Source: Chloroflexota bacterium (GTDB taxonomy: Bacteria; Chloroflexota; Anaerolineae; 4572-78). From it: DNA of 64,000 nt. The stretch spans positions 3,734-67,733 of the forward strand of contig DUEH01000003.1 in NCBI GenBank assembly GCA_011192195.1, written 5' to 3'. Shown in pieces: positions 11,923 to 63,790 of this stretch (its first letter is position 1; each line of letters begins with the position of its first letter). Under the pieces are notes generated by a model. The model made no database searches. It had not been told where the DNA came from and was given only the letters and a program-made list of their open reading frames with translations. Position numbers and translations under genes: made by a program.

Positions 11923-12000
11923 GTTTTACATCCCATAGTTACAAATTCCTAGTGAATATCCAGCAGTATGTGATATGATATAAGTAGCTTGATTTACGAT

Positions 12001-12196
12001 CTCACTACCGTATACCCTCTGGATTTGACAGCAGTTTCAGCTCCCGGGACCGCCGACCATTGACCGTTGACCGCCGAAATTCATCAAAATCGCGCTTTTA
12101 CGACGGTCAGCGGTCTGCCGTCGGCGGTCATATCGGGTGCAAATGGATTTCTGAAGAAAACAATTCTGTCAAATTTAAAGGGTATACGGTAGTGAG
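12001..12196. repeat. 196-nt nested palindrome with perfect 18-bp termini and (GACCGYY)n inner arms
   Basis: ctcactaccgtataccct (12001-12018) is the exact reverse complement of agggtatacggtagtgag (12179-12196). Inner arms are 12048-12077 and 12101-12129. Confidence 0.9.
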
Positions 12197-12308
12197 AATA
12201 GAAACCAGGTTTTTTAAAAAACTGGTTTCCGACTTACAATATCGGGGGTGAAAGCCTCGAAAATGATGGACGTCAAAACAATTATACCCCAAATCAGGAG
12301 AAAACATT

Positions 12309-12851
12309 ATGGAAGAATGGAATCAGGAAAGAGCCGAAAGGCGCGATCTGGAAACAATGCGACGCATTGCTCACGACGCTCTGGAATTCAAGGACGACGC
12401 CGGAGCCTTTGACCGCTATGCCATCGAACATAGCCTCACCGTGAATGAGATTGTCTATTACCTGAACGCTTATGAATACGGCAAAGAGGAAGGTCTACAA
12501 GCCATCCGCACGCCCGACATCATCCCTCCAGATACAGTCAGACAGGCCATCAAAACAATAGGCAAAATGCTGGATAGTCATTTTGAAGGTCGCCTGCCCT
12601 ACCGGCTAACAGATGAGGGGACGGCGATTGGCCTGCACGAAATTCGGCAGCGATGGCAAAGCGGCGAGAGTTTTTTGTTCCCGGTGGCTCAATTTCGTTT
12701 AACCGTCGCCAGCAATCACTGGCATCTGTATTGGATACGCAAATTCGATGCCTGGTGGCCCTATTCTCCGCCGGAAAGAGGACGCAAGTATACACTCAAG
12801 GCCAGGGCGCAACAGATATTAGAAGATGAACACGGTTGCTTTTGGGGATAA
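12309..12851 (+). CDS. Hypothetical protein (C-terminal 'WHLYWIRKFDAWWPY' motif, DUF3024-like by recollection)
   Basis: 180-aa ORF with RBS caggaga 8 nt upstream of the ATG. I cannot assign a function. Confidence 0.6.
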   Translation: MEEWNQERAERRDLETMRRIAHDALEFKDDAGAFDRYAIEHSLTVNEIVYYLNAYEYGKEEGLQAIRTPDIIPPDTVRQAIKTIGKMLDSHFEGRLPYRLTDEGTAIGLHEIRQRWQSGESFLFPVAQFRLTVASNHWHLYWIRKFDAWWPYSPPERGRKYTLKARAQQILEDEHGCFWG

Positions 12852-12944
12852 ATGCCAGGGAAATGATGGCTCGATGGAGTACAATGAGAATGAAATTTTG
12901 AGCCAAAATGTGGTATAATTCAAGTAAGCAGTAAGTCACTCGCT

Positions 12945-12984
12945 CCCAAACTGATCCTTCGGCTTCGCTCAGGACAAGGTTTGG
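12945..12984. repeat. CCCAAAC...GTTTGG interspersed element, copy 1 of 3
   Basis: Sequence is cccaaactgatccttcggcttcgctcaggacaaggtttgg. Near-identical copies lie at 48328-48380 and 51647-51707. Confidence 0.9.
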
Positions 12985-13045
12985 AAACGAGAATAATTTT
13001 TCACTTTCCATTTTTCATTCTTCACTGTTTTTCAGGAGGCCCCAA

Positions 13046-13498
13046 ATGATTAACAGAATACTGCTTCCACTGGATGGCTCGGAATTTGCGGAAAAAGTTT
13101 TGCCCTTTGCGCTGGAATTGGGGGCGAAATTAAACGCCGAAATCAAGTTGCTGTGGGTGCTGCATCCGCTGATAGTAATGTCGGATTACAGCGATACTTC
13201 TTACCGGGAACTGGTGGCGCAAGAAGAAATTGAGGCGAAAAAATACCTTGGAGCGCAGTGCGAGGACCTGGAAAAAGCGGGACTAACGGTGAACATCACC
13301 CTGCTGGAAGGGCGCGTTGCCGATGCCATTGTAGACATGGCCTGTCAGGAAGATGTAGACCTGATTATGATGAGTACGCACGGTCGCTCTGGCCCCAAAC
13401 GATGGATACACGGCAGCGTAGCTACTAAAGTATTACAGCAAGCGCCCTGTCCGGTTTTTTTGGTAGGCAAACAAAGCGATGAGTGTCAGGAAGCGTAG
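13046..13498 (+). CDS. Universal stress protein (UspA family)
   Basis: 150 aa with 'ILLPLDGSEFAE' and 'DLIMMSTHGRSGPKRWIHGSVATKVLQQAPCPVFLV'. Confidence 0.9.
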   Translation: MINRILLPLDGSEFAEKVLPFALELGAKLNAEIKLLWVLHPLIVMSDYSDTSYRELVAQEEIEAKKYLGAQCEDLEKAGLTVNITLLEGRVADAIVDMACQEDVDLIMMSTHGRSGPKRWIHGSVATKVLQQAPCPVFLVGKQSDECQEA

Positions 13499-13525
13499 CC
13501 CCTCTTTCAAAGGAATCAACCAGCA

Positions 13526-15286
13526 TTGAGCTACCAACACCCCTGTTCAAAAATAACCCCTTCCGCCGGGCTAACGCTGCCGGACTTGTTGCAGCGTAGT
13601 GTTGCTATAAAACCATGCGTATCGAGCAGTTTGCTGATTGGCGTGGGATTTTACGCATTGCTGCTTGGCGCAGCATATTTTGATGGCGTCCTGAAGGAAC
13701 TTTACCATGGGCCAGGCTGGCATAGTCTGATCTACCCCCTGATGACCGCCTATCTTCTCCTGCTTCCGCCCCTTATTCGCCGGCAACTTTGTAAGGCCGT
13801 GGAAGAATTTCAGCCGTTACTTCCCGTTCCGGAACGCGGCGAGCAGTTGTTCACTCAATCACTGGCTCTGCGCCGTCAGTATGAATGGCTAAGTTTTTTA
13901 ATGGGAATGACAGTTGGCATCTTTCTCCTGCGCCCGTGGGATTTCACTACGCCTCTGGTGGCTGTGTACGCTTTTTTGATTGGCGGGTTGAATTTTGGCT
14001 TGCTGGGATGGTTTGTTTACAGTGGATTGAATGCCACTCGATTTCTCACGGCGCTACACAGCCGTATCAGGGGATCGGATGTTCAGACTCGCGCCCTTTT
14101 TACGCTTTCGCGATGGAGCCTGACCATCGGTCTGGCTCTGGTGGGCGGCATCATTCTGGGAATTCTCTCCATTTCCGTACAAGAGAGATTCCTTAGCGTA
14201 GACCTTTTTACTTACGGCGGCTTGGTGGCAGTGGCGGCCTTTTTCTTTTTACAAGGGGCCAGTTCCACATCATCGCTAATCACGCAATTTCGTATCTTAA
14301 AAGCGGTAATCCTTTTGTTTATTGTGGCATTGCTGGGCACGGCAGGGTACTACTATCTGGAAGGGTGGGCGCTGTTGGATGGATTTTATATGACCATCAT
14401 CACCATGACCACCATCGGCTTTGGCGAAGTGGCTCCGCTTAGTAAAGCCGGTCGGTTATTTACTATTTTCTTATCCCTGACATCGGTGGGCATTGCCGGA
14501 TATTCTGTTTCGGCGGTGGCGGCCTTTATTGTTGAAGGTGATTTTCAAAAAATTATTCGTGGACGAAAAATGAGAAAAGAAATTGACAAACTGCGCGATC
14601 ACATCATCCTGTGCGGAACAGGGCGAGTTGGCTTGCAAACAGCCATAGAATTTCACAAAACCAACACTCCCTTTGTGGTGGTTGACCAGGATCAGGCGGC
14701 TATTGAAGAGATTTTACGCCTGGGGGAAATTCCCTACCTTGTGGGCGACGCCACCAAAGACGAAACGCTGCTCCTGGCCGGAATAGAACGCGCCAAAGGG
14801 GTAATAGTAGCGTTGTGCGACGACAAAGACAACGCCTTTGTTACGCTTAGCGCCCGCTCGCTCAACGCCAATTTACGCATTGTGGCCCGGCTGACCAACG
14901 AAGAGAATGCCGCCAAACTGCGCAAAGTAGGCGCCGATAATGTTGTCTCTACCAACGTTTTGGGGGGACTGCGACTGGCTTCGCTGATGATCCGCCCTTC
15001 GGTGGTGACGTTTTTAGACGAAATGTTACGCGTTACCGGGCAAACCTTGCGTATGGAAGAGGTGCTTTTACAAGAAGGCGATGGCTTGGTGGGAAGCTCG
15101 CTCATTGAAGCCGATATTGGGCGCAAGACCGGATTGTTGGTAGTTGCCATCAAAGGCCAGCGCGACAGCTACTATTTCAACCCCAGAGGCGCTACTAGCC
15201 TAAGCAGCGGCGACACCTTGATTGTTTTAGGCACAAGCGAACAAGTAGCCGCCTTGCGACAGATGGAGATGAAAAATAAAGGATGA
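13526..15286 (+). CDS. K+ channel family protein with an extended N-terminal membrane domain and TrkA-N/TrkA-C (RCK) domains
   Basis: Pore helix/filter 'YMTIITMTTIGFGEV'. Rossmann 'IILCGTGRVG'. C-terminal TrkA-C-like region. The start (TTG) is uncertain. Confidence 0.8.
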   Translation: MSYQHPCSKITPSAGLTLPDLLQRSVAIKPCVSSSLLIGVGFYALLLGAAYFDGVLKELYHGPGWHSLIYPLMTAYLLLLPPLIRRQLCKAVEEFQPLLPVPERGEQLFTQSLALRRQYEWLSFLMGMTVGIFLLRPWDFTTPLVAVYAFLIGGLNFGLLGWFVYSGLNATRFLTALHSRIRGSDVQTRALFTLSRWSLTIGLALVGGIILGILSISVQERFLSVDLFTYGGLVAVAAFFFLQGASSTSSLITQFRILKAVILLFIVALLGTAGYYYLEGWALLDGFYMTIITMTTIGFGEVAPLSKAGRLFTIFLSLTSVGIAGYSVSAVAAFIVEGDFQKIIRGRKMRKEIDKLRDHIILCGTGRVGLQTAIEFHKTNTPFVVVDQDQAAIEEILRLGEIPYLVGDATKDETLLLAGIERAKGVIVALCDDKDNAFVTLSARSLNANLRIVARLTNEENAAKLRKVGADNVVSTNVLGGLRLASLMIRPSVVTFLDEMLRVTGQTLRMEEVLLQEGDGLVGSSLIEADIGRKTGLLVVAIKGQRDSYYFNPRGATSLSSGDTLIVLGTSEQVAALRQMEMKNKG

Positions 15287-15371
15287 AGGCGGAAGAGCCT
15301 GCCCTGAGCTTGCCGAAGGGATGAAGGATGAAATTTGCACCCTTCGCCATTCTCTTATTCGCTATTCGCCA

Positions 15372-16268
15372 TTACCCTTCCGCCTTTATTTCCACCCCCG
15401 ACAAATTTTCCAGCGCTTTGACCAGGGCGTGATTGCCTTCACTGCCCAGACCGCGCTGTTGCAGGGTGCGGTAGAGGTTGAAGACGGCAGCCGTTCCCAG
15501 CAGGGGAACGCCCAGTTCATCGGCGGCTTTCAGCGCCAGACGCACATCTTTCTGTTGCAGATCAATGCTAAAACCGGGACGCCAGTCTCTATTGATCACC
15601 TGCGGGCCGCGATTACTGAGCATCCAGCTTCCGGCGGCGCCCTGCGATACTGCATCGAGCGTTTTTTGCAAGTCCAACCCGCCCGCCTGAGCAAAGAGCA
15701 GGGCTTCGCTTATTGCCAGCATTGTCCCCACTACCAAAATTTGATTCACCAACTTCACCGTTTGCCCCGCGCCCGTCCCGCCAACGTGGGTGATGGTTTT
15801 TCCCATCGCCCGAAAAGCGGGCATAGCGCGTTCTACCTGCGCCGCATCGCCGCCGACCATGATGCTCAAGGTTCCTTTGGCCGCGCCTTCGCTGCCGCCG
15901 CTGATGGGCGCGTCAAGCATTGCCACGCCGGTTTGGGCCAATTGGTCGGCAATTTTCTGGGTGACTTGCGGGCTGATGGTACTCATATCGATCACCAGAG
16001 ATCCGGCCTTTGCGCCGTGAATGACGCCGTTTTCGCCCAAAATTACCGCCTCCACATCCGGCGTATCGCTGACGCAGATGATGATGATGTCGCTTTTGGC
16101 CGCCACATCCGCCGGACTCTCGCCCGCGCTGGCTCCCGCCGCTGCCAACGCTTCCATTTGGCTGGCTGTGCGATTCCACACGCAAACTTCAAGTCCCGCT
16201 TTCAGCAAATTGGCGCTCATTCCGCGCCCCATAATGCCCAATCCAATAAAGCCAATTTTTTCTTGCAT
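15372..16268 (-). CDS. NAD(P)-dependent beta-hydroxyacid dehydrogenase (3-hydroxyisobutyrate / tartronate-semialdehyde reductase family)
   Basis: 'KIGFIGLGIMGRGMSANL' Rossmann motif plus the family's C-terminal domain. Start chosen at 'MQEKIGF' with RBS agggaga; the longer ORF to 16325 reads into the palindrome. Confidence 0.85.
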   Translation of the reverse strand: MQEKIGFIGLGIMGRGMSANLLKAGLEVCVWNRTASQMEALAAAGASAGESPADVAAKSDIIIICVSDTPDVEAVILGENGVIHGAKAGSLVIDMSTISPQVTQKIADQLAQTGVAMLDAPISGGSEGAAKGTLSIMVGGDAAQVERAMPAFRAMGKTITHVGGTGAGQTVKLVNQILVVGTMLAISEALLFAQAGGLDLQKTLDAVSQGAAGSWMLSNRGPQVINRDWRPGFSIDLQQKDVRLALKAADELGVPLLGTAAVFNLYRTLQQRGLGSEGNHALVKALENLSGVEIKAEG

Positions 16269-16283
16269 AAGTTGTTTCTCCCT

Positions 16284-16337
16284 TGAAAATAGCTTGTAGA
16301 GGAGTGTCAAACTATAGTTTGACACTCCGTATTTTCA
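16284..16337 (-). repeat. Clamped leader hairpin: TGAAAAT - perfect 28-bp palindrome - ATTTTCA, directly 5' of the SD
   Basis: On the coding strand, tgaaaat (16337-16331) and attttca (16290-16284) are exact complements. They enclose ggagtgtcaaactatagtttgacactcc (16301-16328). The SD gggaga and the ATG at 16268 follow. Confidence 0.8.
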
Positions 16338-16363
16338 TCCGCTGTGGTGCGCCGCAGGCTCAT
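16307..16363 (-). other. Candidate 18-codon upstream ORF (MSLRRTTADENTECQTIV)
   Basis: SD-like gaggag lies 7 nt before the ATG (16363). The first 11 codons are conserved with a second copy at 41616. It may only be part of a repeat. Confidence 0.25.
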
Positions 16364-16377
16364 AATAACTCCTCTTG

Positions 16378-16458
16378 CAAATGGGTTTGTAGTCAGGTAC
16401 GCAACGCAGTGAAGTACCATAAAACGCCACTCCACTACGTTACGTGGCTAACTACGAG
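16378..16458. repeat. ~80-bp interspersed palindromic element, copy A (inverted relative to copy B at 27299-27374)
   Basis: The reverse complement ctcgtagttagccacg...cgtacctgactacaaacccatttg aligns at roughly 80% with 27299-27374. Confidence 0.85.
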
Positions 16459-16462
16459 CTAA

Positions 16463-16936
16463 TTACACCCTGCGTACCGTCCCGGCGTCGCCGTCTACTA
16501 ACAGGATCATTCCCGTCTTGAATTGTTGAACGGGAACGCTGTCTACGCAGGGAATTTCGGAAATGATACAACCAACGGCGGTAATGGGTTCACATTCGGC
16601 GTTGATAATGGCTGCTGGCGCCGCGCCGCCCAGTTTCAGGCGGTACAGCGTGTACGATCCTACCGTTGACCCCTTGCCGCTGGGAAAGACCAGCGCTTTT
16701 CCGGCAATAGATTGCCCTTCCAGTTCGTGGTCTTTTTCTAGCACCACGCCGCTTTCCGGGTCTACCCCGCCAAAAAAAGAGATGCCCATCGATGTGACCA
16801 GCGCTTCGGCTTGCGCCTGTCCCCCGTAAATTTTGCGTCCCTGATAAACCTGAGCGCCGAGCGCTGACCGCCGAGCGCCAATCCCTGACGATACCGTCGT
16901 TTCTTTTACAATCATTTTGAATTTTTCACTTTGCAT
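16463..16936 (-). CDS. Aconitase X swivel-domain subunit (DUF126)
   Basis: 'GGQAQAEALVTSMGISFFGGVDPESGVV...GKALVFPSGKGSTVGS...GAAPAAII'. About 25 N-terminal residues are encoded by heptamer-like repeats (16852-16879, 16905-16945), so the start is uncertain. Confidence 0.75.
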   Translation of the reverse strand: MQSEKFKMIVKETTVSSGIGARRSALGAQVYQGRKIYGGQAQAEALVTSMGISFFGGVDPESGVVLEKDHELEGQSIAGKALVFPSGKGSTVGSYTLYRLKLGGAAPAAIINAECEPITAVGCIISEIPCVDSVPVQQFKTGMILLVDGDAGTVRRV

Positions 16937-16942
16937 TTTGCA

Positions 16943-18142
16943 TTACCTTGTCGCCTCTGCAACCACATCGTCAAAAGGTTTTAGCGCGGTTTTGAAGTTG
17001 TTTTTGGCAAAAGCGTAGTAACAAGCTTTTGCGCTGTCTGTTACCATTGTGTCAAAGCGGCCTTTGATGGGCGCAACCACGCAGCAAGTATCGGCGGCAA
17101 TTTTTGCGCCGCTGGCTTCAATGGTGGCCGTGTAGCCCATCATATCCGCAATTTGCTTCACCGGGCGGGCGGTGGTAATCCAAAATTCTTTGGTCACCTT
17201 CTTGCCCTCCAGCAGTTCGGCAATGCGGGCTACTTCCTTGATGCTTAAGTGCGGGCAGCCCAGACTTACAAAGTCGGCGGCTTCGGACGCTTCCATATTC
17301 ATCGAGGCGATAGCCGCGTTGATTTCTGCCTGAGTCACCACGATGGTCTCTGTTGGCGGCGAAAATTGCGCCGCTTCCGGCGTAATGCCCTCCATGTGGA
17401 ACAGGGCCACGCCGCCATAGGTGGCAATGCTGGCGCAAAAGGATTTTAGATTTTCCACCGATGCTTCCGGCACGCCGTGAATGTAGGGCGCAATTTTCTT
17501 GCCCCCCGCTTCCAGCTTTTGCCCGATGGCTTTGCCCAGCGCGCCAAAGACGTTGTTTTCCGGCAGCTTTCCCTGCACTTTAATGGTCACGGCGGGACGA
17601 CGATTTTCAGTCAGGTGAAAGCCGTAAGCGGGCGTAACGCCGGTCAGCGATGCGGCCAATGCGCTGGGGCCGCCCTCTCTATTAGTGCGCGCCCCAATCA
17701 CCGAATTGGCGTAGCAGACCGCGCTGCTTTCCGCCCAGGCAATATGCTCACCGTAGTGGGGCGTGTTGCCAATGAGGTAAGGCGTGCAGGTGGCGGTAGC
17801 AATAACCTTCATTTGGGCAAAGGCATCCAGTACGCGCTGCTGGTTTTTGGCAAATTCCGGGCTAATGCCCAACGCCTGCCAGTTTTCAATATCCATTCCC
17901 GCCGGATTTAGCGTGGTCAGCACGCGCGCTCTGCCGCCGCCTTCTGCCATTTGCTGCAAAAAATGCAGCCCGGCCTCGCCCAAATTGTCGTAGCTCACCC
18001 CGGCAATCTGCACCGACGTTGCCGGAACCATTCTCTCCGCGCCGTAGATGCGTCCCAGGGTTGTTAAAATTTCCATTGCTTTCTGCGTCGCCGGACCTTC
18101 CCGTCCGTTGAGCATATCCTGTTCTTTTTGATTTAGTTTCAT
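16943..18142 (-). CDS. Aconitase X catalytic subunit (DUF521)
   Basis: 399 aa. 'LNQKEQDMLNGREGPATQKAMEIL' and 'VSYDNLGEAGLHFL' are typical of the AcnX large subunit. It sits adjacent to the DUF126 partner. Confidence 0.8.
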   Translation of the reverse strand: MKLNQKEQDMLNGREGPATQKAMEILTTLGRIYGAERMVPATSVQIAGVSYDNLGEAGLHFLQQMAEGGGRARVLTTLNPAGMDIENWQALGISPEFAKNQQRVLDAFAQMKVIATATCTPYLIGNTPHYGEHIAWAESSAVCYANSVIGARTNREGGPSALAASLTGVTPAYGFHLTENRRPAVTIKVQGKLPENNVFGALGKAIGQKLEAGGKKIAPYIHGVPEASVENLKSFCASIATYGGVALFHMEGITPEAAQFSPPTETIVVTQAEINAAIASMNMEASEAADFVSLGCPHLSIKEVARIAELLEGKKVTKEFWITTARPVKQIADMMGYTATIEASGAKIAADTCCVVAPIKGRFDTMVTDSAKACYYAFAKNNFKTALKPFDDVVAEATR

Positions 18143-18232
18143 AGGTTACTCCTTGTAAGTCTCTCCCCATTACCCGGTGTGCCGGCGTGAATTCATCCAG
18201 CGCCAAAACCAGGCGCTTTGACCGAGTAGTGC

Positions 18233-18329
18233 GTAACCATTCACTCCCTACCCCCCTCGTGAGGGGGGAGGGCTTTAAACTTCCCCCCGTGAACGGGGGG
18301 ATTGAGGGGGGTGGGGAATGAACGATTAC
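18233..18329. repeat. C/G-rich double-hairpin element with terminal inverted repeats GTAACC(A/G)TTCAC, copy 1
   Basis: Sequence is gtaaccattcactcc...cccctcgtgagggggg...cttccccccgtgaacgggggg...ggggaatgaacgattac. A second copy with the same core and TIRs lies at 39654-39779. Confidence 0.9.
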
Positions 18330-18456
18330 GTACGGATTTGTCTGATGCTCCCTCAAAATGGTAATAAAACCGCCCGACTTCGAGAGGACGAGCCATCGTC
18401 TCAACAAACCGTCGTGAAGTTTCGAATGCTTCCCTGGATAGCATTGTAGCAGTCAT
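18330..18456 (-). pseudogene. N-terminal ~42-codon gene fragment truncated by the repeat element
   Basis: Good RBS (gggaga) and ATG at 18456. The product 'MTATMLSREAFETSRRFVETMARPLEVGRFYYHFEGASDKSV' then reads straight into element 18233-18329. Confidence 0.4.
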
Positions 18457-18638
18457 CTTATTCTTCTCCCGCATAGCCGGTTTCGCTGTACAATCTGACA
18501 TCATTATAGTAGCTTACAAAATCTTGGACAATTCGGCGGGTCATTTGAACCAATAGTAAATGCACCCCCGTGTGCGCTCCAAGTTGAAATTAGCGCGGTA
18601 TTTGTTATAATGGAGTCAAAGAATGTTCGGAAGGAAAT

Positions 18639-20207
18639 ATGAGACAGAATCGCAAAACTCAAGATGGCAGAACTCAAAAAGGTAAAAGAATGCCTCAATA
18701 TTTGACGCCAATAGCGCGCGATAAAGTGGTAGAGAGTATGAGAGACGGCGTCATTGTGCTGGATACGCAATCGCGCATTGTGGATATGAATCCTGCCGCT
18801 CAAAAACTGATGCGTCGCTCTCTCATGGAAGTACTTGGTCAGCCCTTAGAACAGTTCCTTTTTAGATGGCCCGACCTGGCAAAACGTTTCCGCGATGTTC
18901 TTGAAGCGCGCGCGCAAATTGTCCTGGGCGAAGAAGTAGAGCCACGCTATTACGATCTACACATCTCACCGCTCTATGATCGACAAGAAAAGCTAATTGG
19001 ACGGCTGCTTCTTTTGCACGACATCACCCGGTACAAAGAGATGGAAGAGACACAAGAGCGCTACGCCAAACAAAATGCCCGCCTCTTCCAGAAAGAACAG
19101 CGCCAGCGCAAAATCGCCGAAAGCCTGCGTCAGGCTATGCTCGTTCTCAGTAGAAGCCTGGATCATACCGCGATTGTGGCGGAAATTCTGGCGCAGATCA
19201 AGAAGTTGATTCCCTACGACAGCGCCGGTTTCTTTTTACAAGATGGCGACGACTTGCGCCTTAGCAAGGGCGTAGGATTTGATTACACCGTTGTTGATGC
19301 CCGTATTCCCCTCGATAGTCGCAATCGAACCGTACAGGCATTTAAACATAAACGAACTGAAGTGATCCCCGATGTCCGCGTCGATCCCCACTGGCATCCT
19401 TTTTCTAGCCATGAAAAAGTTCATAGCGCTGTGGCAGCGCCGCTGGTAATTGGACAGGAAGCCATTGGCGTATTGACCGTTGACCGCTTTGAAGCTCAAG
19501 CCTTTACCGATGAAGACGCCCAAATCCTGCAAGTATTTGCCAATCAGGCCGCTATTGCTTTTAAAAACGCGCAGCTCCACCAGCAAGCGCAAAGCGCCGC
19601 TGCCCTCGAGGAAAGGAACCGGCTGGCGCAAGACCTGCACGATGCCGTCAATCAAACCCTTTTCTCCGCCGCCCTCATCGCCGAAGCCCTGCCGAACATC
19701 TGGGAAGAAGACCCTAAACACGGCGCGCAAGTGCTTGAAGAATTGCGCCTGCTAACCCAGGGCGCCCTGGCCGAAATGCGTACGCTGCTGCTGGAGCTTC
19801 GCCCCGCTGCGCTCACGGAAAAAAGTTTTGGCGAATTGCTCCAGCACCTCGCCAAAGCATTCACTAACCGGACCCAAATACCGGTCAACCTGCTTATCGA
19901 AGGTGATTGCGCTTTGCCGCCTGACGTACAGATCACCTTCTATCGTATTGCGCAAGAGATATTGGTCAACATCACCAAACACGCTAAAGCTACTCAAGTA
20001 AGCCTGAATTTTGACTGCGCGCCGGAAGTGGTTGTATTATCTGTCTGTGATAACGGTTGCGGATTCGACACAAAGCGCATTCCCCTGGGACACTTTGGCC
20101 TTGGCATCATGCGTGAACGCGCTGATAAAATTGGCGCAACGCTGGAAATTGCCAGCCAGCCGGGGCGCGGCGCCAACATTGCGCTGGTTTGGGAAAATAA
20201 AGGTTGA
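18639..20207 (+). CDS. Sensor histidine kinase (PAS-GAF-HisKA_3-HATPase_c), NarL-type partner
   Basis: HisKA_3 H-box 'LAQDLHDAVNQTLFS'. ATPase boxes 'LVNITKHAKA', 'VCDNGCGFD', 'GLGIMRERA'. The 4-nt gap to the downstream regulator suggests coupling. Confidence 0.85.
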   Translation: MRQNRKTQDGRTQKGKRMPQYLTPIARDKVVESMRDGVIVLDTQSRIVDMNPAAQKLMRRSLMEVLGQPLEQFLFRWPDLAKRFRDVLEARAQIVLGEEVEPRYYDLHISPLYDRQEKLIGRLLLLHDITRYKEMEETQERYAKQNARLFQKEQRQRKIAESLRQAMLVLSRSLDHTAIVAEILAQIKKLIPYDSAGFFLQDGDDLRLSKGVGFDYTVVDARIPLDSRNRTVQAFKHKRTEVIPDVRVDPHWHPFSSHEKVHSAVAAPLVIGQEAIGVLTVDRFEAQAFTDEDAQILQVFANQAAIAFKNAQLHQQAQSAAALEERNRLAQDLHDAVNQTLFSAALIAEALPNIWEEDPKHGAQVLEELRLLTQGALAEMRTLLLELRPAALTEKSFGELLQHLAKAFTNRTQIPVNLLIEGDCALPPDVQITFYRIAQEILVNITKHAKATQVSLNFDCAPEVVVLSVCDNGCGFDTKRIPLGHFGLGIMRERADKIGATLEIASQPGRGANIALVWENKG

Positions 20208-20210
20208 GCG

Positions 20211-20858
20211 ATGAGCAACAGAAAAATCAAAGTGATGATCGTTGATGACCACATGGTTGTTCGCCGGGGCTTGGCTCACGTCATCCAGACCTTTAAGGAT
20301 GTGGAACTGGTGGCTGAAGCGGAAGGCGGCGAGGAAGCCCTTCTCTGGTGCCGCAAATACAGCCCTGATGTAGTTCTGATGGACGTAAAAATGGAGGGAA
20401 TGGATGGCATTGCCGCCACCGAAGCCATTTGTAAATTTTACCCGCGCACCAAAGTGATTGCCCTCAGCACCTTCCACGATAAAAATATGATCAAACAGAT
20501 GATGAACGCCGGCGCCATTGGTTACCTCCTCAAAAATGTTTCGCTCAAAGAACTGGCCAATGCAATTCGATCCGCTTATGCGGGCAAGTCCGTCTTTGCT
20601 CCGGAAGTAGCGCAAGCTATGGCGGCAAAGCAGACAGCCCCCCCCGCTAATCCACAAGTCGCCGACCTGACCGAGCGGCAAAAAGAAGTATTAGCTCTGC
20701 TGGCAGTCGGGTTGAGCAACGTTGAAATCGCCAAACGTTTGACCATTACCCTCGGCACAGTTCGATATCACGTTAGCTCCATCCTCACTAAATTGGGCGT
20801 ATCCAACCGCACCGAAGCCGCCGCCATCGCCATAAAAAGCGATTTAGTGGAAGAATGA
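20211..20858 (+). CDS. NarL/FixJ-family response regulator (REC + LuxR HTH)
   Basis: 'KVMIVDDH...DVVLMDVKMEGMDG' and 'LTERQKEVLALLAVGLSNVEIAKRLTITLGTVRYHVSSILTKLGV'. Confidence 0.9.
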   Translation: MSNRKIKVMIVDDHMVVRRGLAHVIQTFKDVELVAEAEGGEEALLWCRKYSPDVVLMDVKMEGMDGIAATEAICKFYPRTKVIALSTFHDKNMIKQMMNAGAIGYLLKNVSLKELANAIRSAYAGKSVFAPEVAQAMAAKQTAPPANPQVADLTERQKEVLALLAVGLSNVEIAKRLTITLGTVRYHVSSILTKLGVSNRTEAAAIAIKSDLVEE

Positions 20859-20950
20859 CAAGGAGACAAGGAGCAGGTGGGCAGGTGGGCAGGTGGGCAG
20901 GTGAGATTGTCCCCTTGTCTCCTTGTCTCCCCCTGCTCCCCTGCTCCCTG
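20857..20950. repeat. Interleaved complementary repeats in A-B-A'-B' order, with (CAGGTGGG)n
   Basis: A is gacaaggagacaagg (20857-20871) and A' is its exact complement (20913-20927). B is agcaggtgggcaggtgggcaggtgggcaggtgag (20872-20905) and B' is tccccctgctcccctgctccctg (20928-20950). It starts at the regulator stop codon. Confidence 0.85.
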
Positions 20951-21072
20951 TACATCTGTCCAGTCCCCCCGCCAAAAACCAGACAATCGTCCAGTCTAAA
21001 ACTGGACAATCGTCTAGTGACTCAATGGGATTTTTACTGTAAAATATAAAATATTGTGAAAGGATATAATTG

Positions 21073-21429
21073 ATGCGCGTTTTGTTGGCCGATCAACGAC
21101 CCGATGTCCGCCTGTCGCTGGCTCTCCTCCTTAACAGGGAGCCAGGCGTTAGCGTTGTGGGCAGCGCCAGCGAAACTGAGGGGCTGCTGGCCTTGGCCAA
21201 AAGCGCTCGCCCCGACATTGTGATCCTTGACCGCGACTTACCCGGCAGCTCCACTGAAGACGCGCTAAACTCCCTCCGTATCCTTGACCAACACCTGAAG
21301 ATATTGCTCCTCAACGCTTCTGCCAGCCCTGCAACACGCGCCCAACTAAGCAAGATTGACGCCATCATCAGCAAAAACGATTCGCCGGAGATTCTGCTGG
21401 AAAAATTTCGTATTCTGGTTGCGGCTTGA
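21073..21429 (+). CDS. Single-domain response regulator (receiver only)
   Basis: 'RVLLADQRPDVR...PDIVILDRDLPG...KILLLNAS' receiver pattern with no output domain. Confidence 0.75.
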   Translation: MRVLLADQRPDVRLSLALLLNREPGVSVVGSASETEGLLALAKSARPDIVILDRDLPGSSTEDALNSLRILDQHLKILLLNASASPATRAQLSKIDAIISKNDSPEILLEKFRILVAA

Positions 21430-21550
21430 TTTTGTTTCAAGCCGCTAACATAGAAATTAAATTTGGGAGGTATTATATTGAACAGATGCCCTAACATTTT
21501 TTGATAGTCGCTAACATAAATGCTTCAACATTCGTTATCTACACTATAAC

Positions 21551-21684
21551 GCAGTTTTCCAAAAGTAACACACAAAACGACAAATGACGAAGGACGAAGG
21601 ACGAAAAATGTTAGCTTCACAAGTAATTCGTCCTCCGTCATTCGTCTTTCGTCGAGGCGTTATGCGCGACTTTTGGAAAACTGC
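21551..21684. repeat. 134-nt nested palindrome with (GACGAAG/GACAAAT)n inner arms
   Basis: gcagttttccaaaagt (21551-21566) is the exact complement of acttttggaaaactgc (21669-21684). Inner arms are 21578-21605 and 21627-21654. It sits in the leader of the BMP gene. Confidence 0.9.
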
Positions 21685-21715
21685 CTGTAAACCAATTATT
21701 CTAAAGGAGAACAAA

Positions 21716-22747
21716 ATGAAAAATCGTTTCAAAACATGGACTTTGCTGGCCGTGATGCTAATGGTCAGCCTGATGGGCAACGCTTGCGGCGGCGGCGACG
21801 CTGCCGACACTGGCGGCGGCGATTTCAAAGCCGCTATTGTCACCGACACCGCCGGATTGGGCGACCAATCCTTCAACGACTCGGCCAATCGCGGTTTGGA
21901 GAAAGCCAAAGCAGACCTGGGCATCGAGACGCAAGTCTACGAAACTTCTCAACCCTCTGACTACGAGCCAAGTCTGTCCCGCGCCCCTTCGCAGGGCAGC
22001 GACATCACCTTTGCTATCGGCTTTTTGATGACCGACGCCGTAACCAACGTTTCCAGCCAAAACGCCGACGCCAAATACGCCATCATCGACTCGGTAGTTG
22101 AGGCTGATAATGTAGCTTCGCTTGTTTTCAAGGAAGAGGAAGGCTCTTTCCTGGTCGGCGTGGTGGCTGGACTAATGACCAAGTCTAATAAAGTCGCTTT
22201 TCTCGGCGGGATGGAAGTACCCCTCATCAAAAAGTTCGAGGCAGGCTTCAAGGCCGGGGTGATGACTGTCAACCCGGATGCGGAAGTGATAGCAACCTAC
22301 GCTGGCGATTTTAACGACCCCGGCAAAGGCAAAGAGGTTGCCCTCAGCCAGTACGCCGCTGGAGCTGACGTGATTTATCACGCTTCGGGCGGCACCGGTC
22401 TGGGCTTGTTCCAGGCTGCGCAGGAAAAAGGCGCCGGCTTCTGGGCTATCGGCGTGGATTCTGACCAGTATGAGCTGGCTCCGGAAAACACCCTGACCTC
22501 GATGATGAAGCGGGTTGATACAGCCGTCTTTGAAACGATCAAGGCTACTAAAGAGGGCAATTTCAAATCCGGCATAACGGTCTTTGGCCTGAAAGAAGAC
22601 GGCGTGGGACTATCGCCGACGACCAACAAGAATACGCCGCAAGATGTAATTGATAAAGCTAACGCGCTTGGCGACAAGATCATCGCGGGCGAGTTTACAG
22701 TACCAACAACCGATGAAGAGTTGGAGAGTTTTACTCCGCCGAAATAA
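21716..22747 (+). CDS. BMP-family (PnrA/Med-like) nucleoside-binding ABC substrate-binding lipoprotein
   Basis: Start at 'MKNRFKTWTLLAVMLMVSLMGNAC' with RBS aaaggaga. 'KAAIVTDTAGLGDQSFND' and 'KVAFLGGMEVPLIKKFEAGF' are BMP-family hallmarks. Confidence 0.85.
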   Translation: MKNRFKTWTLLAVMLMVSLMGNACGGGDAADTGGGDFKAAIVTDTAGLGDQSFNDSANRGLEKAKADLGIETQVYETSQPSDYEPSLSRAPSQGSDITFAIGFLMTDAVTNVSSQNADAKYAIIDSVVEADNVASLVFKEEEGSFLVGVVAGLMTKSNKVAFLGGMEVPLIKKFEAGFKAGVMTVNPDAEVIATYAGDFNDPGKGKEVALSQYAAGADVIYHASGGTGLGLFQAAQEKGAGFWAIGVDSDQYELAPENTLTSMMKRVDTAVFETIKATKEGNFKSGITVFGLKEDGVGLSPTTNKNTPQDVIDKANALGDKIIAGEFTVPTTDEELESFTPPK

Positions 22748-22764
22748 GCAAGTAGAGTTAGTGC

Positions 22765-22952
22765 TGAGGAGTGAGCATCCTCAGATGCGGCGACGTTCGA
22801 CATCTGAGGATACCTCACTCCTCAAAGGTACAGGTTTAGTGAAACCGTCCATTTTTTGCTCCAGGCGGGTCCGTGACTTGCGTCTTGGGCGCAACAAGTC
22901 CGCCGGTTCACGGAACCGGCTAGAGCGTAACTTGGTTCACTGAACCTGTACC
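22765..22952. repeat. Highly structured intercistronic spacer with three nested or adjacent hairpins
   Basis: Hairpin 1 is 22765-22787 with 22801-22824. Hairpin 2 has arms ggtacaggtttagtgaaacc (22827-22846) and ggttcactgaacctgtacc (22934-22952). It encloses a GC-rich inner stem-loop set (22864-22919). Confidence 0.85.
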
Positions 22953-22980
22953 CTCAAAGTGTCAGCAGGGAGGAAAATCT

Positions 22981-24534
22981 GTGAATAAAAAAACGCCTGT
23001 CATTGAAATGCGGGACATGACAAAAGTCTTTCCCGGAGTGATCGCCAACGACCATATCAACCTGGCCGTTTACGAGGGCGAGGTATTGGGGCTATTGGGC
23101 GAAAATGGCGCGGGCAAGAGCGTCTTGATGAGCGTCCTCTACGGCCTCTATCCACCCACCGAGGGCGAAATATTTGTGCGCGGCAAGCAAGTTGACATCA
23201 CGGAGCCAAAGGTGGCCATCGAGCATGGGATTGGGATGGTCCACCAGCACTTCATGCTGGTGCCGCCCTTTACCGTAGCTGAAAATATCATCTTAGGCTC
23301 TGAACCGCGCACCGGCGCCGGGACTCTGGATATAGCTAAAGCGGCCGAGGACATCAAAGCTTTGTCCGAAAAATATAATCTGGAAGTAGACCCCTACGCC
23401 AAAATCGAGGACATCTCGGTGGGCATGGCCCAGCGAGTCGAGATTCTCAAGACAATGTACCGGGGCGCGCAAGTGCTGATTCTGGACGAGCCGACAGCAG
23501 TATTGACGCCGCAGGAGATCAAGGGGCTGTTCAAGATTATGCGCAACCTGACAGAATCGGGCGTCCCCGTTATCTTTATCTCACATAAGCTCAAGGAGTT
23601 GATGGAGATTTGCGATCGGGTGACTGTCATCCGCCGGGGCAAGATGATTGGCACAATTGGCATCGAAGATGCGTCGCCGCAAGTTCTGGCCAGTATGATG
23701 GTAGGGCGCGACGTTGTGCTGGAAGTAGACAAAGAAGCCGGTCACCCCAAAGAGGTGACCTTGGACGTAAAAAATATCCACGCGGTTGACCAAAACGGCC
23801 TGCCCGTGTTGAACGGCGTTTCCTTTCAGGTGCGCGCGGGCGAAATTGTGGGCATTGCAGGCGTGGCCGGCAACGGCCAATCGGAATTGATAGAGGTCAT
23901 TACCGGCTTGCATAAGGCCAAGTCGGGGGCGGTGCAATTAATGGGGGAAACCATAACCAATCACTCCGCCAAGCAGATCATTCACGGGGGCATTGCCACT
24001 ATTCCTGAAGATCGCCATCATCGCGGGCTGATCCTGGACTTTAGCATCGCCGATAACGGAGTTCTGGGTTCTCACGACCAGCCTCCCTTTGCTCGCTGGA
24101 TCCGGCGCAACTTTGATGCCATTAAAGACTATGCCGATGAATTTATCCAGGAATTCGATGTTCGCACGCCCAACCAGGAAGCGTTGGTCAGGAATTTATC
24201 GGGCGGCAACCAACAAAAGGTAATCATCGCCCGGGAAATAGGGCGCGAACCGAATTTGCTGATTGCAGCCCAACCGACCAGGGGCGTAGACGTGGGCGCC
24301 ATCGAGTTCATCCATAAACGGATCATCGAACAGCGCGACGCCGGTAAGGCGGTCTTGGTGATTTCAAACGAGTTAGACGAGGTAATGGGCCTCAGCGACC
24401 GGATACTGGTCATGTTCCACGGCGAAATCGTCGGCGAAATACCGGGTGAGGAAGCCACGGAAGATGAATTGGGGCTGTACATGGCCGGCGCCAAGCGAAA
24501 CACGCCGCCATCCCAGGGAGGGGAAACCAAATGA
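22981..24534 (+). CDS. ABC transporter ATP-binding protein, duplicated ATPase (nucleoside/sugar CUT2 type)
   Basis: Walker A 'GENGAGKS', signature 'LSGGNQQK', and two ABC domains. GTG start with RBS agggagg. Confidence 0.9.
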   Translation: MNKKTPVIEMRDMTKVFPGVIANDHINLAVYEGEVLGLLGENGAGKSVLMSVLYGLYPPTEGEIFVRGKQVDITEPKVAIEHGIGMVHQHFMLVPPFTVAENIILGSEPRTGAGTLDIAKAAEDIKALSEKYNLEVDPYAKIEDISVGMAQRVEILKTMYRGAQVLILDEPTAVLTPQEIKGLFKIMRNLTESGVPVIFISHKLKELMEICDRVTVIRRGKMIGTIGIEDASPQVLASMMVGRDVVLEVDKEAGHPKEVTLDVKNIHAVDQNGLPVLNGVSFQVRAGEIVGIAGVAGNGQSELIEVITGLHKAKSGAVQLMGETITNHSAKQIIHGGIATIPEDRHHRGLILDFSIADNGVLGSHDQPPFARWIRRNFDAIKDYADEFIQEFDVRTPNQEALVRNLSGGNQQKVIIAREIGREPNLLIAAQPTRGVDVGAIEFIHKRIIEQRDAGKAVLVISNELDEVMGLSDRILVMFHGEIVGEIPGEEATEDELGLYMAGAKRNTPPSQGGETK

Positions 24535-25673
24535 CAACGTCCGAAAAATCAACGACAAGCGTCTGGCGAGAAAGGATTATGCTCATCGTTGGGCCTTTTT
24601 TGCAGCGCATGATCCTGCCGGTGGGTGCCATTTTCATGGCTTTGCTGGTGGGGGCTTTCTTCATCCTCGCCATTGGTAAAAATCCAGTTACGGCTTACGC
24701 CGCCTTGCTCAAGGGCGCTTTTGGGGACATCTATTCCATTGGCGAGACACTGGAGAACACAACCCCGCTCATCTTGACCGGATTGGCGGTGGCCTTTGCT
24801 TTCAGAGCCAAACTCTTCAATATTGGGGCTGAAGGCCAGTTCTTGATGGGCGGGTTGGCTGCAACCTGGGTGGGAACCAACCTGACGCTGCCGATGGTCA
24901 TCCACCTGCCGCTCACCCTGTTGGCCGGGGTTATCGTTGGCGGCTTGTGGGGGGGCTTCGCCGGTTTTCTCAAAGCGGTCCGGGGGGTGCATGAGGTCAT
25001 TAGCACGATTATGTTGAACTTCATCGCCATGTTTTTCATCAGTTATATGGTCACCGGGCCGATGAAAGAAGAATCGGCCCTGAACATTCCGCAGACGGCC
25101 AGAATAGCGGATACGGCTCAATTGATGAATATATTGCCGCCGTCCAGACTTTCGGCGGGAATCATCATTGCCCTGCTGGTCGCCGGTTTCATCTGGTGGC
25201 TTTTGTGGAAGACCACTGTCGGCTACGAAGTCAGAGCCGTGGGGCTTAACTATTTTGCCGCCGAATTTGGCGGCATCAAGCCAAATTACAATATGTTCCT
25301 GGCGATGATGATCAGCGGCGGGTTGGCCGGGCTGGGGGGCGCCATCATCATTTCCGGGCTGTTCCTGCGCTATCAGCATGGCTTTGAACCGGGTTACGGC
25401 TTCACGGCCATTGCGGTCTCGCTGGTAGGGGCCAACAATCCGCCCGGCGTGGTACTGGCCGCCCTGCTTTTTGCCACGTTGAGCCAGGGCGCGCTGGGTA
25501 TGCAAAACATGGCCGATGTTCCGCAAGATATTGTCTACGTTATTCAGGCTTTGGTGATCTTCTTTGTAGCCGCGCCGCAAATTGTGCAGGCGCTGCCAGA
25601 CTGGATTGCCAAACGCAGAGAAGCGGCCCAGGCTGAAGCTGAAGGCGCTCAATTGGAAGGAGGACAAGCATAA
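24531..25673 (+). CDS. ABC transporter permease (BMP/nucleoside importer)
   Basis: 380-aa multi-TM ORF. The start overlaps the ATPase stop by 4 nt. Confidence 0.85.
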   Translation: MTTSEKSTTSVWRERIMLIVGPFLQRMILPVGAIFMALLVGAFFILAIGKNPVTAYAALLKGAFGDIYSIGETLENTTPLILTGLAVAFAFRAKLFNIGAEGQFLMGGLAATWVGTNLTLPMVIHLPLTLLAGVIVGGLWGGFAGFLKAVRGVHEVISTIMLNFIAMFFISYMVTGPMKEESALNIPQTARIADTAQLMNILPPSRLSAGIIIALLVAGFIWWLLWKTTVGYEVRAVGLNYFAAEFGGIKPNYNMFLAMMISGGLAGLGGAIIISGLFLRYQHGFEPGYGFTAIAVSLVGANNPPGVVLAALLFATLSQGALGMQNMADVPQDIVYVIQALVIFFVAAPQIVQALPDWIAKRREAAQAEAEGAQLEGGQA

Positions 25674-26626: not shown

Positions 26627-26649
26627 TCTGGGGTGGTAAAAATAAAAAA

Positions 26650-26776
26650 ATTATAAATGGTAAATTATAAATGGTGAATGGTAAACCGACCTTGAACGTA
26701 GCCGACTTGTACCTGTGTAGGCGCTATGTAATTCGCAATTTACCATTTATAATTCACCATTTAGCATTTACCATTT
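26650..26776. repeat. Imperfect hairpin with (AATGGTR)n arms and a ~49-nt loop
   Basis: Arms are ttataaatggtaaattataaatggtgaatggtaaac (26650-26685) and caatttaccatttataattcaccatttagcatttaccatttg (26735-26776). It is the same repeat class as 5843-5911. Confidence 0.85.
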
Positions 26777-26832
26777 GTCTTGCCCCTTTTGGCAATCTGC
26801 AATCTGTTGAATAAAAAACGCGAGGTGAAAAA

Positions 26833-27258: not shown

Positions 27259-27298
27259 GATGGCTTGCTTTTTTGGGTAGAAAAGATGTAAATGGCTT

Positions 27299-27374
27299 GT
27301 AGTTAGCCACGCAGCGGAGTGGCGTTTCACGACGGTACTCTACTACGTTACGTACCTCACTACAAACCCATTTT
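27299..27374. repeat. ~80-bp interspersed palindromic element, copy B
   Basis: gtagttagccacgcagcggagtggcgtttcacgacggtactctactacgttacgtacctcactacaaacccatttt. It is immediately followed by caaaggagaacaaaATG of deoB. Confidence 0.85.
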
Positions 27375-27388
27375 CAAAGGAGAACAAA

Positions 27389-28581: not shown

Positions 28582-28646
28582 GCCCCCCAACCCCCCAAAG
28601 GGGGGAGCAACTGCCAAAGTTCCCCCTTTTGGGGGGTTGGGGGGGG
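28582..28646. repeat. C/G-rich double-hairpin element
   Basis: gccccccaacccccc-aaa-gggggg...ccccc-tttt-ggggggttgggggggc. It lies 12 nt after the deoB stop and is followed by ctgagtagttac. Confidence 0.85.
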
Positions 28647-28688
28647 CTTGACTGAGTAGTTACAAAACCGATTACGGAGGGAATAACA

Positions 28689-32003: not shown

Positions 32004-32205
32004 TTTATATTCGTGTAAATTAGCGCTATTCGTAACTACTCAGGCTCAGGTGCGACGCACTTAATAAATTGTTTTTTAGTGCAAATAACTACCCAATATC
32101 GTCAAAATTTGCACTTGCAGGGCGCTTCGTGAAGTGCGTTGCACCTATTTTCTCTATGGCTGAGTAGTTACTTTAATTTTTATATTCGTGTAAATTAGCG
32201 CTATT
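32004..32205. repeat. Composite: 27-bp perfect direct repeats flanking a 148-bp palindromic insert
   Basis: tttatattcgtgtaaattagcgctatt occurs at 32004-32030 and 32179-32205. The inner inverted repeats are gtaactactcag (32032-32043) and ctgagtagttac (32160-32171). Confidence 0.9.
32048..32146. repeat. MITE-like element with 15-bp terminal inverted repeats AGGTGCRACGCACTT, copy 1
   Basis: aggtgcgacgcactt (32048-32062) and aagtgcgttgcacct (32132-32146). It is homologous, in inverted orientation, to 60594-60690. Confidence 0.85.
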
Positions 32206-39653: not shown

Positions 39654-39779
39654 GTAACCGTTCACCCCCCTCCAACCTCCCCCGAAATCAAGGGGAGGCT
39701 TTTAAACTTCCCCCCGTCAACGGGGGGAGAGCCTGCCCCGCTTTACCGGGCATTGAGGGGGGTAGGGGTGAACGGTTAC
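39654..39779. repeat. C/G-rich double-hairpin element with terminal inverted repeats GTAACCGTTCAC, copy 2
   Basis: gtaaccgttcacccc...ggggaggcttttaaacttccccccgtcaacgggggg...ggggtgaacggttac. It carries a 24-nt insertion relative to copy 1. Confidence 0.9.
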
Positions 39780-57860: not shown

Positions 57861-57905
57861 CCCCCCCTCTGGCTCCCCCCTCAGTAGGGGGGAGCCAGAG
57901 GGGGG
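57861..57905. repeat. Perfect 19-bp C/G-rich hairpin
   Basis: Arms are ccccccctctggctcccccc and ggggggagccagaggggg with loop tcagta. It is followed by gtgagtagc. Confidence 0.9.
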
Positions 57906-63694: not shown

Positions 63695-63716
63695 AAATTC
63701 CTCTCTTGGAAATAAG

Positions 63717-63790
63717 CCCTCCCTCAATCCCTCCCAAAGGGAGGGAGGCTCGAGTTCCCTCTCCTTTTGGGAGAGGGTTAGGGAGAGGTC
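63717..63790. repeat. C/G-rich double-hairpin element
   Basis: ccctccc-aaa-gggaggg (63729-63745) and ccctctcc-tttt-gggagaggg (63756-63776) between complementary outer flanks. The architecture matches 28582-28646. Confidence 0.85.

Follow-up and report, generated by a model that had tools for sequence, protein, structure and literature searches.

A family of non-coding foldback elements in uncultured Chloroflexota, with two copies that adjoin truncated genes

Here we describe a family of transposable elements of the miniature inverted-repeat kind (MITEs) of uncultured Chloroflexota, two copies of which lie in a 64,000-nucleotide stretch of contig DUEH01000003.1 (the whole of which we call the window). 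Copy 1 (18233-18329, 97 bp) and copy 2 (39654-39779, 126 bp) are 67% identical and represent a single, diverged element that is non-coding and that we did not find described in the literature searched. The best overall explanation, to which we assign a probability of roughly 0.78, is that this foldback element is moved in trans and that the two window copies lost flanking sequence after insertion. A reading made earlier from the letters of the window (the sequence-only reading) had proposed either a non-autonomous mobile element or a recombination hotspot that had caused insertions and deletions. The mobile element is now backed by ten dispersed copies, four target-site duplications and an in-frame insertion within a PAS domain, and it is on these grounds that we identify it as a MITE.

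The family extends well beyond the window. A scan for the core pattern across 185,579 species genomes uncovered six copies in the uncultured Caldilineaceae metagenome-assembled genome (MAG) CAYWSS01, and a covariance model (R1) built from nine members added two more in the flanks of the Caldilineaceae loci, bringing the total to eight there and ten overall; at least two Chloroflexota genomes thus contain the dispersed family. The sequence-only reading had named the existence of just two copies as grounds for giving up its proposal, and those grounds are gone. Neighbouring genes differ for every copy, so the contexts are unrelated. Copies are 82-126 bp long and pairwise 67-84% identical, the longest identical run between known copies being about 27 consecutive bases. 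GTAAYCRTTCAC stands at both ends of seven copies and at one end of two more, and the family's terminal repeats, of 12-14 bp with the consensus GTAAYCRTTCACC, enclose a variable interior that folds into a three-way-junction core of G/C runs. Two subfamilies are each represented in both genomes, one comprising copy 1, L005 and L007b and the other copy 2, L001, L004, L007a and L008 (L numbers denote loci outside the window). The interiors are modular, with sub-modules swapped or inverted between copies, one of them inverted between L006 and L004b, while the sequence of the terminal repeats is conserved. Copy 1 and L005 have in common a pair of asymmetric ends, with left CCA and right TCG, that places two mismatches in the stem; with this mismatching pair shared by both copies, the ends behave like sites for binding a protein and not like a stem.

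Of the nine copies whose two ends can both be recognised, four have target-site duplications directly outside GTAAC...GTTAC, 8 bp long in three copies and 9 bp in one (Table 1). Among random site pairs drawn from the same DNA, the chance of such a match is 1.15e-3 per site, and the probability of four or more in nine is about 2e-10. An IS630-type TA duplication (G-TA-ACC...GGT-TA-C) was considered and rejected, since the outer G...C is conserved too, and since it is GTAAC...GTTAC that the 8-bp duplications flank. One of the copies with a duplication, L004:3722-3830, keeps the frame of the 1007-aa multi-PAS histidine kinase in which it lies, where element and duplication together (109 + 8 = 117 nt) amount to 39 codons and no stop. 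The Pfam PAS_4 profile, of 110 positions, is matched from 2 to 73 when the insert is present and from 2 to 108 when the 39 residues are left out. Seven homologues lack the insert in the PAS domain, at only 29-40% identity.

These properties place the family among known kinds of bacterial repeat. Bacterial MITEs include Correia elements of Neisseria, Nezha of cyanobacteria and RUP of pneumococcus, in which the duplications are TA or otherwise short and the ends are IS630-, IS5- or IS4-like. Like them, the elements described here are small, bounded by terminal inverted repeats, associated with target duplications, able to fold back, dispersed as diverged and mostly intergenic copies, and dependent on a transposase acting in trans; they differ in having no sequence relationship to those families and in their modular interior, a three-way junction with C6/G6 runs. 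Rickettsia palindromic elements (RPE), which carry a CGTC tag, are palindromic repeats that lie in frame in genes and add a peptide segment, without clear terminal repeats or duplications. The PAS-domain copy resembles RPE in being palindromic, in frame and a source of added peptide, whereas the family has both terminal repeats and duplications and a single known in-gene copy. The MITE family is an ordinary type of selfish DNA, and it is well documented here.

The two window copies are built alike. Both have 12-nt terminal inverted repeats of the GTAAYCRTTCAC type. Those of copy 1 read GTAACCATTCAC and GTAATCGTTCAT (as the reverse complement), and in copy 2 each end reads GTAACCGTTCAC. With up to two mismatches allowed, the terminal-repeat pattern matches the window 16 times against 5.3 expected, a count that none of 100 shuffles reached (0/100), and its exact matches are the ends of copies 1 and 2 only. 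The copies also share a 27-nt core, TTTAAACTTCCCCCCGTSAACGGGGGG, with two exact occurrences in the window and 0 expected, and the block ATTGAGGGGGGTRGGG, so that all three parts that the sequence-only reading had seen in common were confirmed by sequence. In each, an outer stem of G/C runs surrounds two inner hairpins linked by GGCTTT(T)AAACTT. Copy 1 consists internally of hairpin 1 CCCCCCTCGTGAGGGGGG, linker GGGCTTTAAACTT and hairpin 2 CCCCCCGTGAACGGGGGG; copy 2 consists of hairpin 1 CCCC(C)GAAATCAAGGGG, linker AGGCTTTTAAACTT and hairpin 2 CCCCCCGTCAACGGGGGG, with an extra hairpin at 39731-39753. Either copy can be folded as a single long hairpin or as an outer stem enclosing two hairpins. 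At -55 to -78 kcal/mol these folds are highly stable, and they exceed those of shuffled sequences, with z scores of -4.4 for copy 1 and -6.2 for copy 2. The coding content of the element is limited to short P/G-rich read-through frames, several frames being open. No translated copy matched when six-frame peptides of the element were queried against 5.8 billion proteins, and BLAST of this MITE and of the second one described below against the PLSDB plasmids returned no match.

Both window copies abut gene remnants. Copy 1 was said to cut a gene with a ribosome-binding site (RBS) and ATG after 42 codons, and this is borne out by homology that stops at 18330. The 42-codon open reading frame (ORF) has no Pfam match, and an exhaustive HMMER search identified it as the N-terminal part of a protein family whose members have about 266-311 aa (pattern M..L..EAF..RRF.E..ARPLEV.RF.YHF.GA...V..L..YQNADGGFG; full gene about 311 aa); it is 78% identical to P0122 and also matches P0126 and P0128. 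L017, a metagenome contig that has the gene without the MITE and is not syntenic, is 82% identical in nucleotide sequence between 18475 and 18330, where the similarity ends at the edge of the MITE. No other pieces of the ~311-aa gene were found in the 64-kb window, and the database protein P0121 (71 aa) is the remnant read on into the MITE. In L017 (155-1098), the closest relative, the ~311-aa gene is itself split into ORFs of 169 aa and 133 aa, apparently by a frameshift, and its decay may be under way in several lineages.

The other terminus of copy 1, its left, adjoins the 90-nt leader of the AcnX operon (16463-18142). The intervening sequence, 18143-18232, was examined as a possible continuation of the truncated gene ('ALLGQSA', 'PGFGAG') and rejected, as its alignment to a relative's gene is no better than that of shuffles. 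The promoter-like site upstream of the remnant (Table 1) is the only predicted promoter placed to transcribe through copy 1 into the AcnX operon, and none was predicted between the element and AcnX. This arrangement of a surviving promoter with no other promoter behind it suggests read-through, and the remnant's promoter probably now reads through the copy 1 MITE into the AcnX operon.

Copy 2 had been placed exactly between a C-terminal fragment of an aldo/keto reductase gene and an internal fragment of a Lon-related protease gene, with its terminal repeat giving the latter a TAA stop, and Pfam matches confirm this picture. The 86-aa ORF at 39405-39665 on the minus strand takes four codons from the terminal repeat and matches PF00248 (Aldo_ket_red) at positions 219-289 of 291 (E 3e-14). 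On its other side, the minus-strand frame 39776-40030 matches PF13654 (AAA_32) at 102-133 of 133 and PF20436 (LonB LID domain) at 1-21 of 65, and the stop supplied by the repeat lies at 39776-39778. All three flanking fragments are therefore gene remnants, which removes the second ground on which the mobile-element proposal was to be abandoned. The neighbouring rhamnulokinase gene (40034-41584) is 100% identical to HEY83593.1, and its next relatives are about 70% identical.

Neither window copy has a duplication: the flanks of copy 1, AGTAGTGC and GTACGGAT, agree at 1/8 positions and those of copy 2 at 3/8. The 8-bp window flanks include ATCCGTAC (or its partner), ATCCTGTC and TCTGCGTC. The absence of duplications at both copies indicates that the flanks were rearranged after insertion. 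From this absence, and from the exact coincidence of the breakpoints with the element ends, we infer that the MITE caused the truncations in the window.

The simplest sequence of events would begin with the insertion of both copies into genes, copy 1 into the ~311-aa gene and copy 2 into either the Lon-like or the aldo/keto reductase gene. Each copy would then have lost one of its original flanks, either by homologous recombination between two copies in the same orientation or by a transposase-mediated adjacent deletion. Either route would leave an element without a duplication, its termini joined precisely to unrelated truncated genes. A deletion by same-orientation recombination fits the order at copy 2, because the Lon fragment lies upstream and the aldo/keto reductase fragment downstream on one strand. 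Reciprocal recombination between the two window copies themselves was rejected, as their flanks fail to pair in either orientation.

What might move the family is suggested by its ends. Members of the IS66 family have ends of 20-30 bp that start with GTAAGCG, and 8-bp direct repeats (PMC11946415); ISDge4 of Deinococcus geothermalis, from the ISBst12 group of that family, has the ends GTGACTACTCAGCA and GTAACTGCTCAGCA and an 8-bp repeat (PMC12898284). The elements described here likewise have terminal repeats that start with GTAA and 8-bp target duplications. Compared with the ISDge4 ends, GT(A/G)ACT(A/G)CTCAGCA, the second MITE end (GTAACTACTCAGC) agrees at 13/13 positions and the first family (GTAACCGTTCACC) at about 9-10/13. 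They differ from IS66/ISBst12 elements in being 82-140 bp long and encoding nothing, and in the 9-bp duplication of one copy; this length is reported for the ISLre2-family element ISGka4 (PMC8024623), which is annotated as 'IS66-like'. The transposase most likely belongs to an ISBst12-like group of the IS66 family and acts in trans, to judge by these ends and duplication lengths. The MITE would accordingly be mobilised by a DDE transposase whose staggered cuts, made at AT-rich targets, are 8 bp or occasionally 9 bp apart. We found no IS66-derived MITEs in the literature searched.

The second MITE (32032-32171) accounts for a motif reported in the sequence-only reading, in which several elements were noted as being followed by (C/G)TGAGTAG(T)(T)AC. 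TGAGTAG is indeed enriched in the window (7 against 2.4 expected), but at copy 1 a degenerate form of the motif comes before the element, not after it, and the supposed tail 'TGAGTAGTTAC' is the terminal repeat of the second MITE, which represents a related family. The motif CTGAGTAGTTAC is the reverse complement of GTAACTACTCAG, the end of that element. As a 12-mer, GTAACTACTCAG occurs three times in the window, at the two inverted ends of the second MITE and as a solo end after the hairpin at 28583-28644. The end of the second MITE reads GTAACTACTCAGSC, and of the generalised end GTAAYYRYTCAS the window has six occurrences where 0.1 would be expected, every one of them a MITE end. A direct repeat of about 35-40 nt (TAATTTTTA..ATATTCGTGTAAATTAGCGCTATT) flanks the second MITE at 31990-32210; it ends 1 nt before the left end, restarts directly after the right end, and is far longer than an 8-bp duplication.

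Several observations weigh against the interpretation of a MITE family moved in trans whose window copies lost their flanks after insertion. First, no transposase of any kind, and with it no partner acting in trans, was found among the 54 ORFs of the window or detected in the loci; Pfam DDE_Tnp_IS66 and a full-length element bounded by family ends were likewise absent from window and loci, and tblastn with the IS66-like transposase of ISGka4 was negative. Of the window organism, the analysis covered 64 kb plus about 30 kb. The IS66 assignment is made from ends and duplication length only. Second, five of the nine two-ended copies, including both in the window, have no duplication. Third, the copies are old and diverged, at 67-84% identity, which makes current activity doubtful. 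Fourth, an empty site was not found in any strain at the locus of copy 1 or of copy 2; the genomes nearest to this one are about 70-89% identical and non-syntenic. The ancestral copy 2 locus was not recovered through rhamnulokinase orthologues, whose relatives are about 70% identical and lack conserved downstream synteny, and an 89% relative has a tRNA cluster at the copy 2 position. Fifth, the other break of the Lon fragment (40030/40031, beside the rhamnulokinase stop) lies at no element, which means that the decay at the copy 2 locus is only in part linked to it. Finally, the core occurs without GTAAC ends in a Desulfomonilaceae MAG from another phylum (L002/L009 and L003) and may have a life of its own.

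The last of these points bears on a different reading, in which the G/C-run core (C-rich arm, hairpin, GGCTTTAAACTT linker, CCCCCC..GGGGGG hairpin and G-rich arm) is an independent structured module found across phyla that was captured secondarily between IS66-type ends. Besides the Desulfomonilaceae MAG, two JGI metagenome contigs (L011 and L012) have the core without GTAAC ends, and the window itself contains three related structures, at 28583-28644, 57862-57905 and 63716-63790. The sequence-only reading had pointed to these structures, and they are present, as distant relatives that score 23-33 bits with the family model. The first of them has 24-nt arms that are 96% complementary, a z score of -7.4 and a model score of 23 bits; the last is laid out as a C-rich arm, a hairpin, a GGCTCGAGTT linker, a second hairpin and a G-rich arm. 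In the Desulfomonilaceae loci the hairpin AAACTTCCCCCCGTTGACGGGGGG (L002:262-286, equal to L009:463-487; L003:1013-1108) is preceded by a small hairpin and followed by GAGGGGGG, inside a longer repeated unit, and about 50 nt after it are conserved (GAACGTTGAA.CC..CTATCGTCC..TCGGTCCGGAATA). We consider capture of such a module unlikely. If it were true, the core could have a function or a way of spreading of its own, and the lineage might possess a general mechanism, so far undescribed, for building or maintaining long intergenic hairpins, of which the MITE would be one product.

Other intergenic hairpins are plentiful in the window. Almost every intergenic region has tandem arrays of 7-8-mers, usually two inverted arrays that form a long hairpin (3189-3259, 5843-5910, 7026-7103, 8120-8175, 12048-12129, 26648-26776, 33786-33851, 35664-35720, 38007-38088, 44303-44341, 51752-51816 and 59108-59228). 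The repeated unit differs from site to site (ATTTACG, AATGGTG, TTCGCCCA, GACCGCC, CGAATGA, TTAATTG, CGAATGGG and others), and similar hairpins lie between tRNA genes in the 89% relative (L023:2000-2260). The arrays resemble the STRR heptamers of cyanobacteria, but in hairpin form. A relationship of the MITE terminal repeat to the heptamer arrays (GTGAATG/GTAAATG) was tried and rejected as weak, with at least 2-3 mismatches.

That the window is a chimera, its assembler having joined unrelated loci through a shared repeat so that the fragments are halves of different intact genes, each with a MITE copy inside it, is improbable overall, and the evidence differs between the two copies. The source is a MAG, and MITE copies can lie inside genes. 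For copy 1, however, an independently deposited assembly (L020; GCA_002084745.1, contig NBMA01000073.1), which is 99.8-99.9% identical to window positions 12040-28867, contains the element with both junctions and identical flanks, at 99.94% over 3.3 kb. For copy 2, L021 (99.66% identical) and L022, from the same population, extend from rhamnulokinase across the Lon fragment into the right arm of the element, of which they contain 24 nt before the MITE sequence ends; the right junction is thus reproduced, whereas the junction with the aldo/keto reductase remnant at 39653/39654 is seen in the window assembly alone. Left of the equivalent of 39756, L022 (a Logan contig, SRR6301447) continues with 22 nt (TGCCGACCAAACCTATCTTACC, L022:1845-1866) that match nothing in the window or loci, which points to a branch in the assembly graph; these nucleotides may be a population variant or a second rearrangement within the MITE. 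Against a chimera, the ~27 identical consecutive bases that copies share at most are too few to mislead assemblers unless near-identical copies exist elsewhere, and the Lon fragment, being cut on its far side without any repeat, is a genuine remnant regardless of the MITE. Misassembly is therefore largely excluded for copy 1 but may have occurred at the left junction of copy 2.

L020 differs from the window in further respects. It lacks five window segments of 98-295 nt (12702-12886, 16490-16784, 20058-20231, 23343-23440 and 25740-25880), at least four of which are intragenic, in the AcnX swivel subunit, at a histidine kinase/response regulator junction (fused in L020), in an ABC ATPase and in a permease. 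They represent deletions in the strain or else artefacts of assembly. Synteny between window and L020 breaks at about 12040, precisely where the heptamer hairpin 12048-12129 has its left edge. At this break lies, in the window, the left arm of an inverted repeat of 51 nt (11981-12031, which pairs with 12166-12216), in place of which L020 has a region with an IS91-family (Y2_Tnp) transposase (15937-20216).

This synteny break at the edge of another hairpin also fits a scenario to which we give little credence, namely that the palindromes are deletion hotspots that stall replication or are cut by nucleases, with copies spreading by recombination only and never by transposition. The great stability of the structures and the deletions beside both window copies are in keeping with it, but it leaves unexplained the 8-9 bp duplications, the conserved asymmetry of ends that do not pair and the clean in-frame insertion in the PAS domain. 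Moreover, hairpin-induced deletions normally take part or all of the palindrome and seldom stop at its outermost base on both sides.

It is more improbable still that the element is a structure selected by the host, such as a terminator, an mRNA stabiliser, a small RNA gene or a repetitive extragenic palindrome (REP) mobilised by a REP-associated tyrosine transposase (RAYT), and that its association with gene fragments is incidental. Copies are mostly intergenic and in 7/9 related copies share the orientation of the flanking genes, but both window copies are antisense to theirs; RNAalifold on nine family members recovers the three-way junction and the L004 ends show one compensatory change (GTACCC...GGGTAC), but covariation is minimal, at 2/18 pairs. 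The element has no Rfam match at gathering or relaxed thresholds: at gathering score the search returned nothing but one tRNA (L012:9803-9876, outside any element), and the relaxed search only sub-threshold matches to generic hairpins (miRNA precursor). An intrinsic terminator was rejected, as no terminator-like site coincides with either antisense copy and no T-run follows the structure. REPs are 20-40 bp long, carry a GTAG joined to the stem at its 5' end, move without duplicating the target and occur in association with RAYTs (PMC3733652, which also mentions RPE). The window hairpins resemble REPs and REPINs as short, abundant intergenic palindromes, some with GAGTAG nearby, whereas none of these four features holds: the element is 97-126 bp long, the GTAG is not attached to the 5' side of the stem but forms part of another MITE's end, duplications are present that REP/IS200-type movement does not make, and the window has no RAYT or Y1/IS200 transposase gene. 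An integron attC site was also rejected, as the core-site consensus does not fit.

The coordinates of the features are collected in Table 1. Three observations in the window concern other repeats and genes. A 54-nt repeat, ACTSGYTCCCAAACTGATCCTTCGGYTTCGCTCAGGACAAGGTTTGGRAACSAG, forms a long hairpin and is present in three copies (12938-12991, 48327-48380 and 51657-51710), constituting another small repeat family. A 58-nt repeat (16331-16388 and 41584-41641, 84% identical) lies directly upstream of two unrelated minus-strand ORFs, one starting at 16325 (3-hydroxyisobutyrate-dehydrogenase-like) and one at 41584 (the rhamnulokinase, for which the annotated start of P0001 is about 19 codons further in), and may be a shared leader or regulatory site. 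Within a rhamnose/fucose utilisation cluster, the 1065-aa ORF at 48392-51589 on the minus strand consists of three tandem Peripla_BP_4 sugar-binding domains, 1008 and 1023 nt apart and 84-89% identical, an arrangement also found in L021.

Table 1. Features of the window and insertion sites of family members with target-site duplications
Feature	Position	Strand	Details
MITE copy 1	18233..18329	+	Subfamily A; terminal repeats 18233-18244 and 18318-18329; model R1 91 bits
MITE copy 2	39654..39779	+	Subfamily B; terminal repeats 39654-39665 and 39768-39779, perfect; model R1 94 bits
N-terminal remnant, 42 codons, RBS and ATG	18330..18456 (ORF 18331-18456)	-	Cut exactly at the MITE end
Promoter-like site TTGTCC-17-TATAAT	18503..18531	-	Consensus match only; upstream of the 42-codon remnant
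Aldo/keto reductase C-terminal remnant, last ~83 codons	39405..39653	-	No start codon; adjoins left end of copy 2
LonB-like AAA+ protease internal remnant, ~84 codons	39780..40030	-	Between the rhamnulokinase stop and the MITE
Second MITE, 140 bp	32032..32171	.	Terminal repeats GTAACTACTCAG(G/C)C; ends match ISDge4
G/C-run double hairpin (28583-28644), then solo GTAACTACTCAG end (28652-28663, minus)	28583..28663	+	Left end not recognisable
Perfect 20-bp G/C-run hairpin, then TGAGTAG	57862..57905	.	29 bits; no GTAAC ends; distant relative of the core
Double hairpin with MITE-core layout	63716..63790	.	z -4.3; 33 bits; no GTAAC ends
Family copy with duplication	L004:3722-3830		AAATTCAA / AAATTAAA, 7/8
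Family copy with duplication	L005:3667-3769		CTCTTTTT / GTCTTTTT, 7/8
Family copy with duplication	L004:5715-5796		TAACTAAC / TAACTAAC, 8/8
Family copy with duplication	L007:526-637		TTTGTTGAT / TTTTTTGAT, 8/9

These findings leave general concepts unchanged and have several more specific consequences. First, they document in Chloroflexota, in a Caldilineaceae MAG and an unclassified Chloroflexota MAG, a MITE family with IS66/ISBst12-like ends. Second, they provide a concrete case of a MITE copy that is tolerated in frame within a sensor (PAS) domain. Third, they identify two loci at which a MITE marks the exact breakpoints of gene truncation, which helps in the annotation of pseudogenes and of spurious small ORFs such as P0121. 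Finally, the element can help to assess where contigs break, and where chimeras may have arisen, in MAGs of this group of Chloroflexota.

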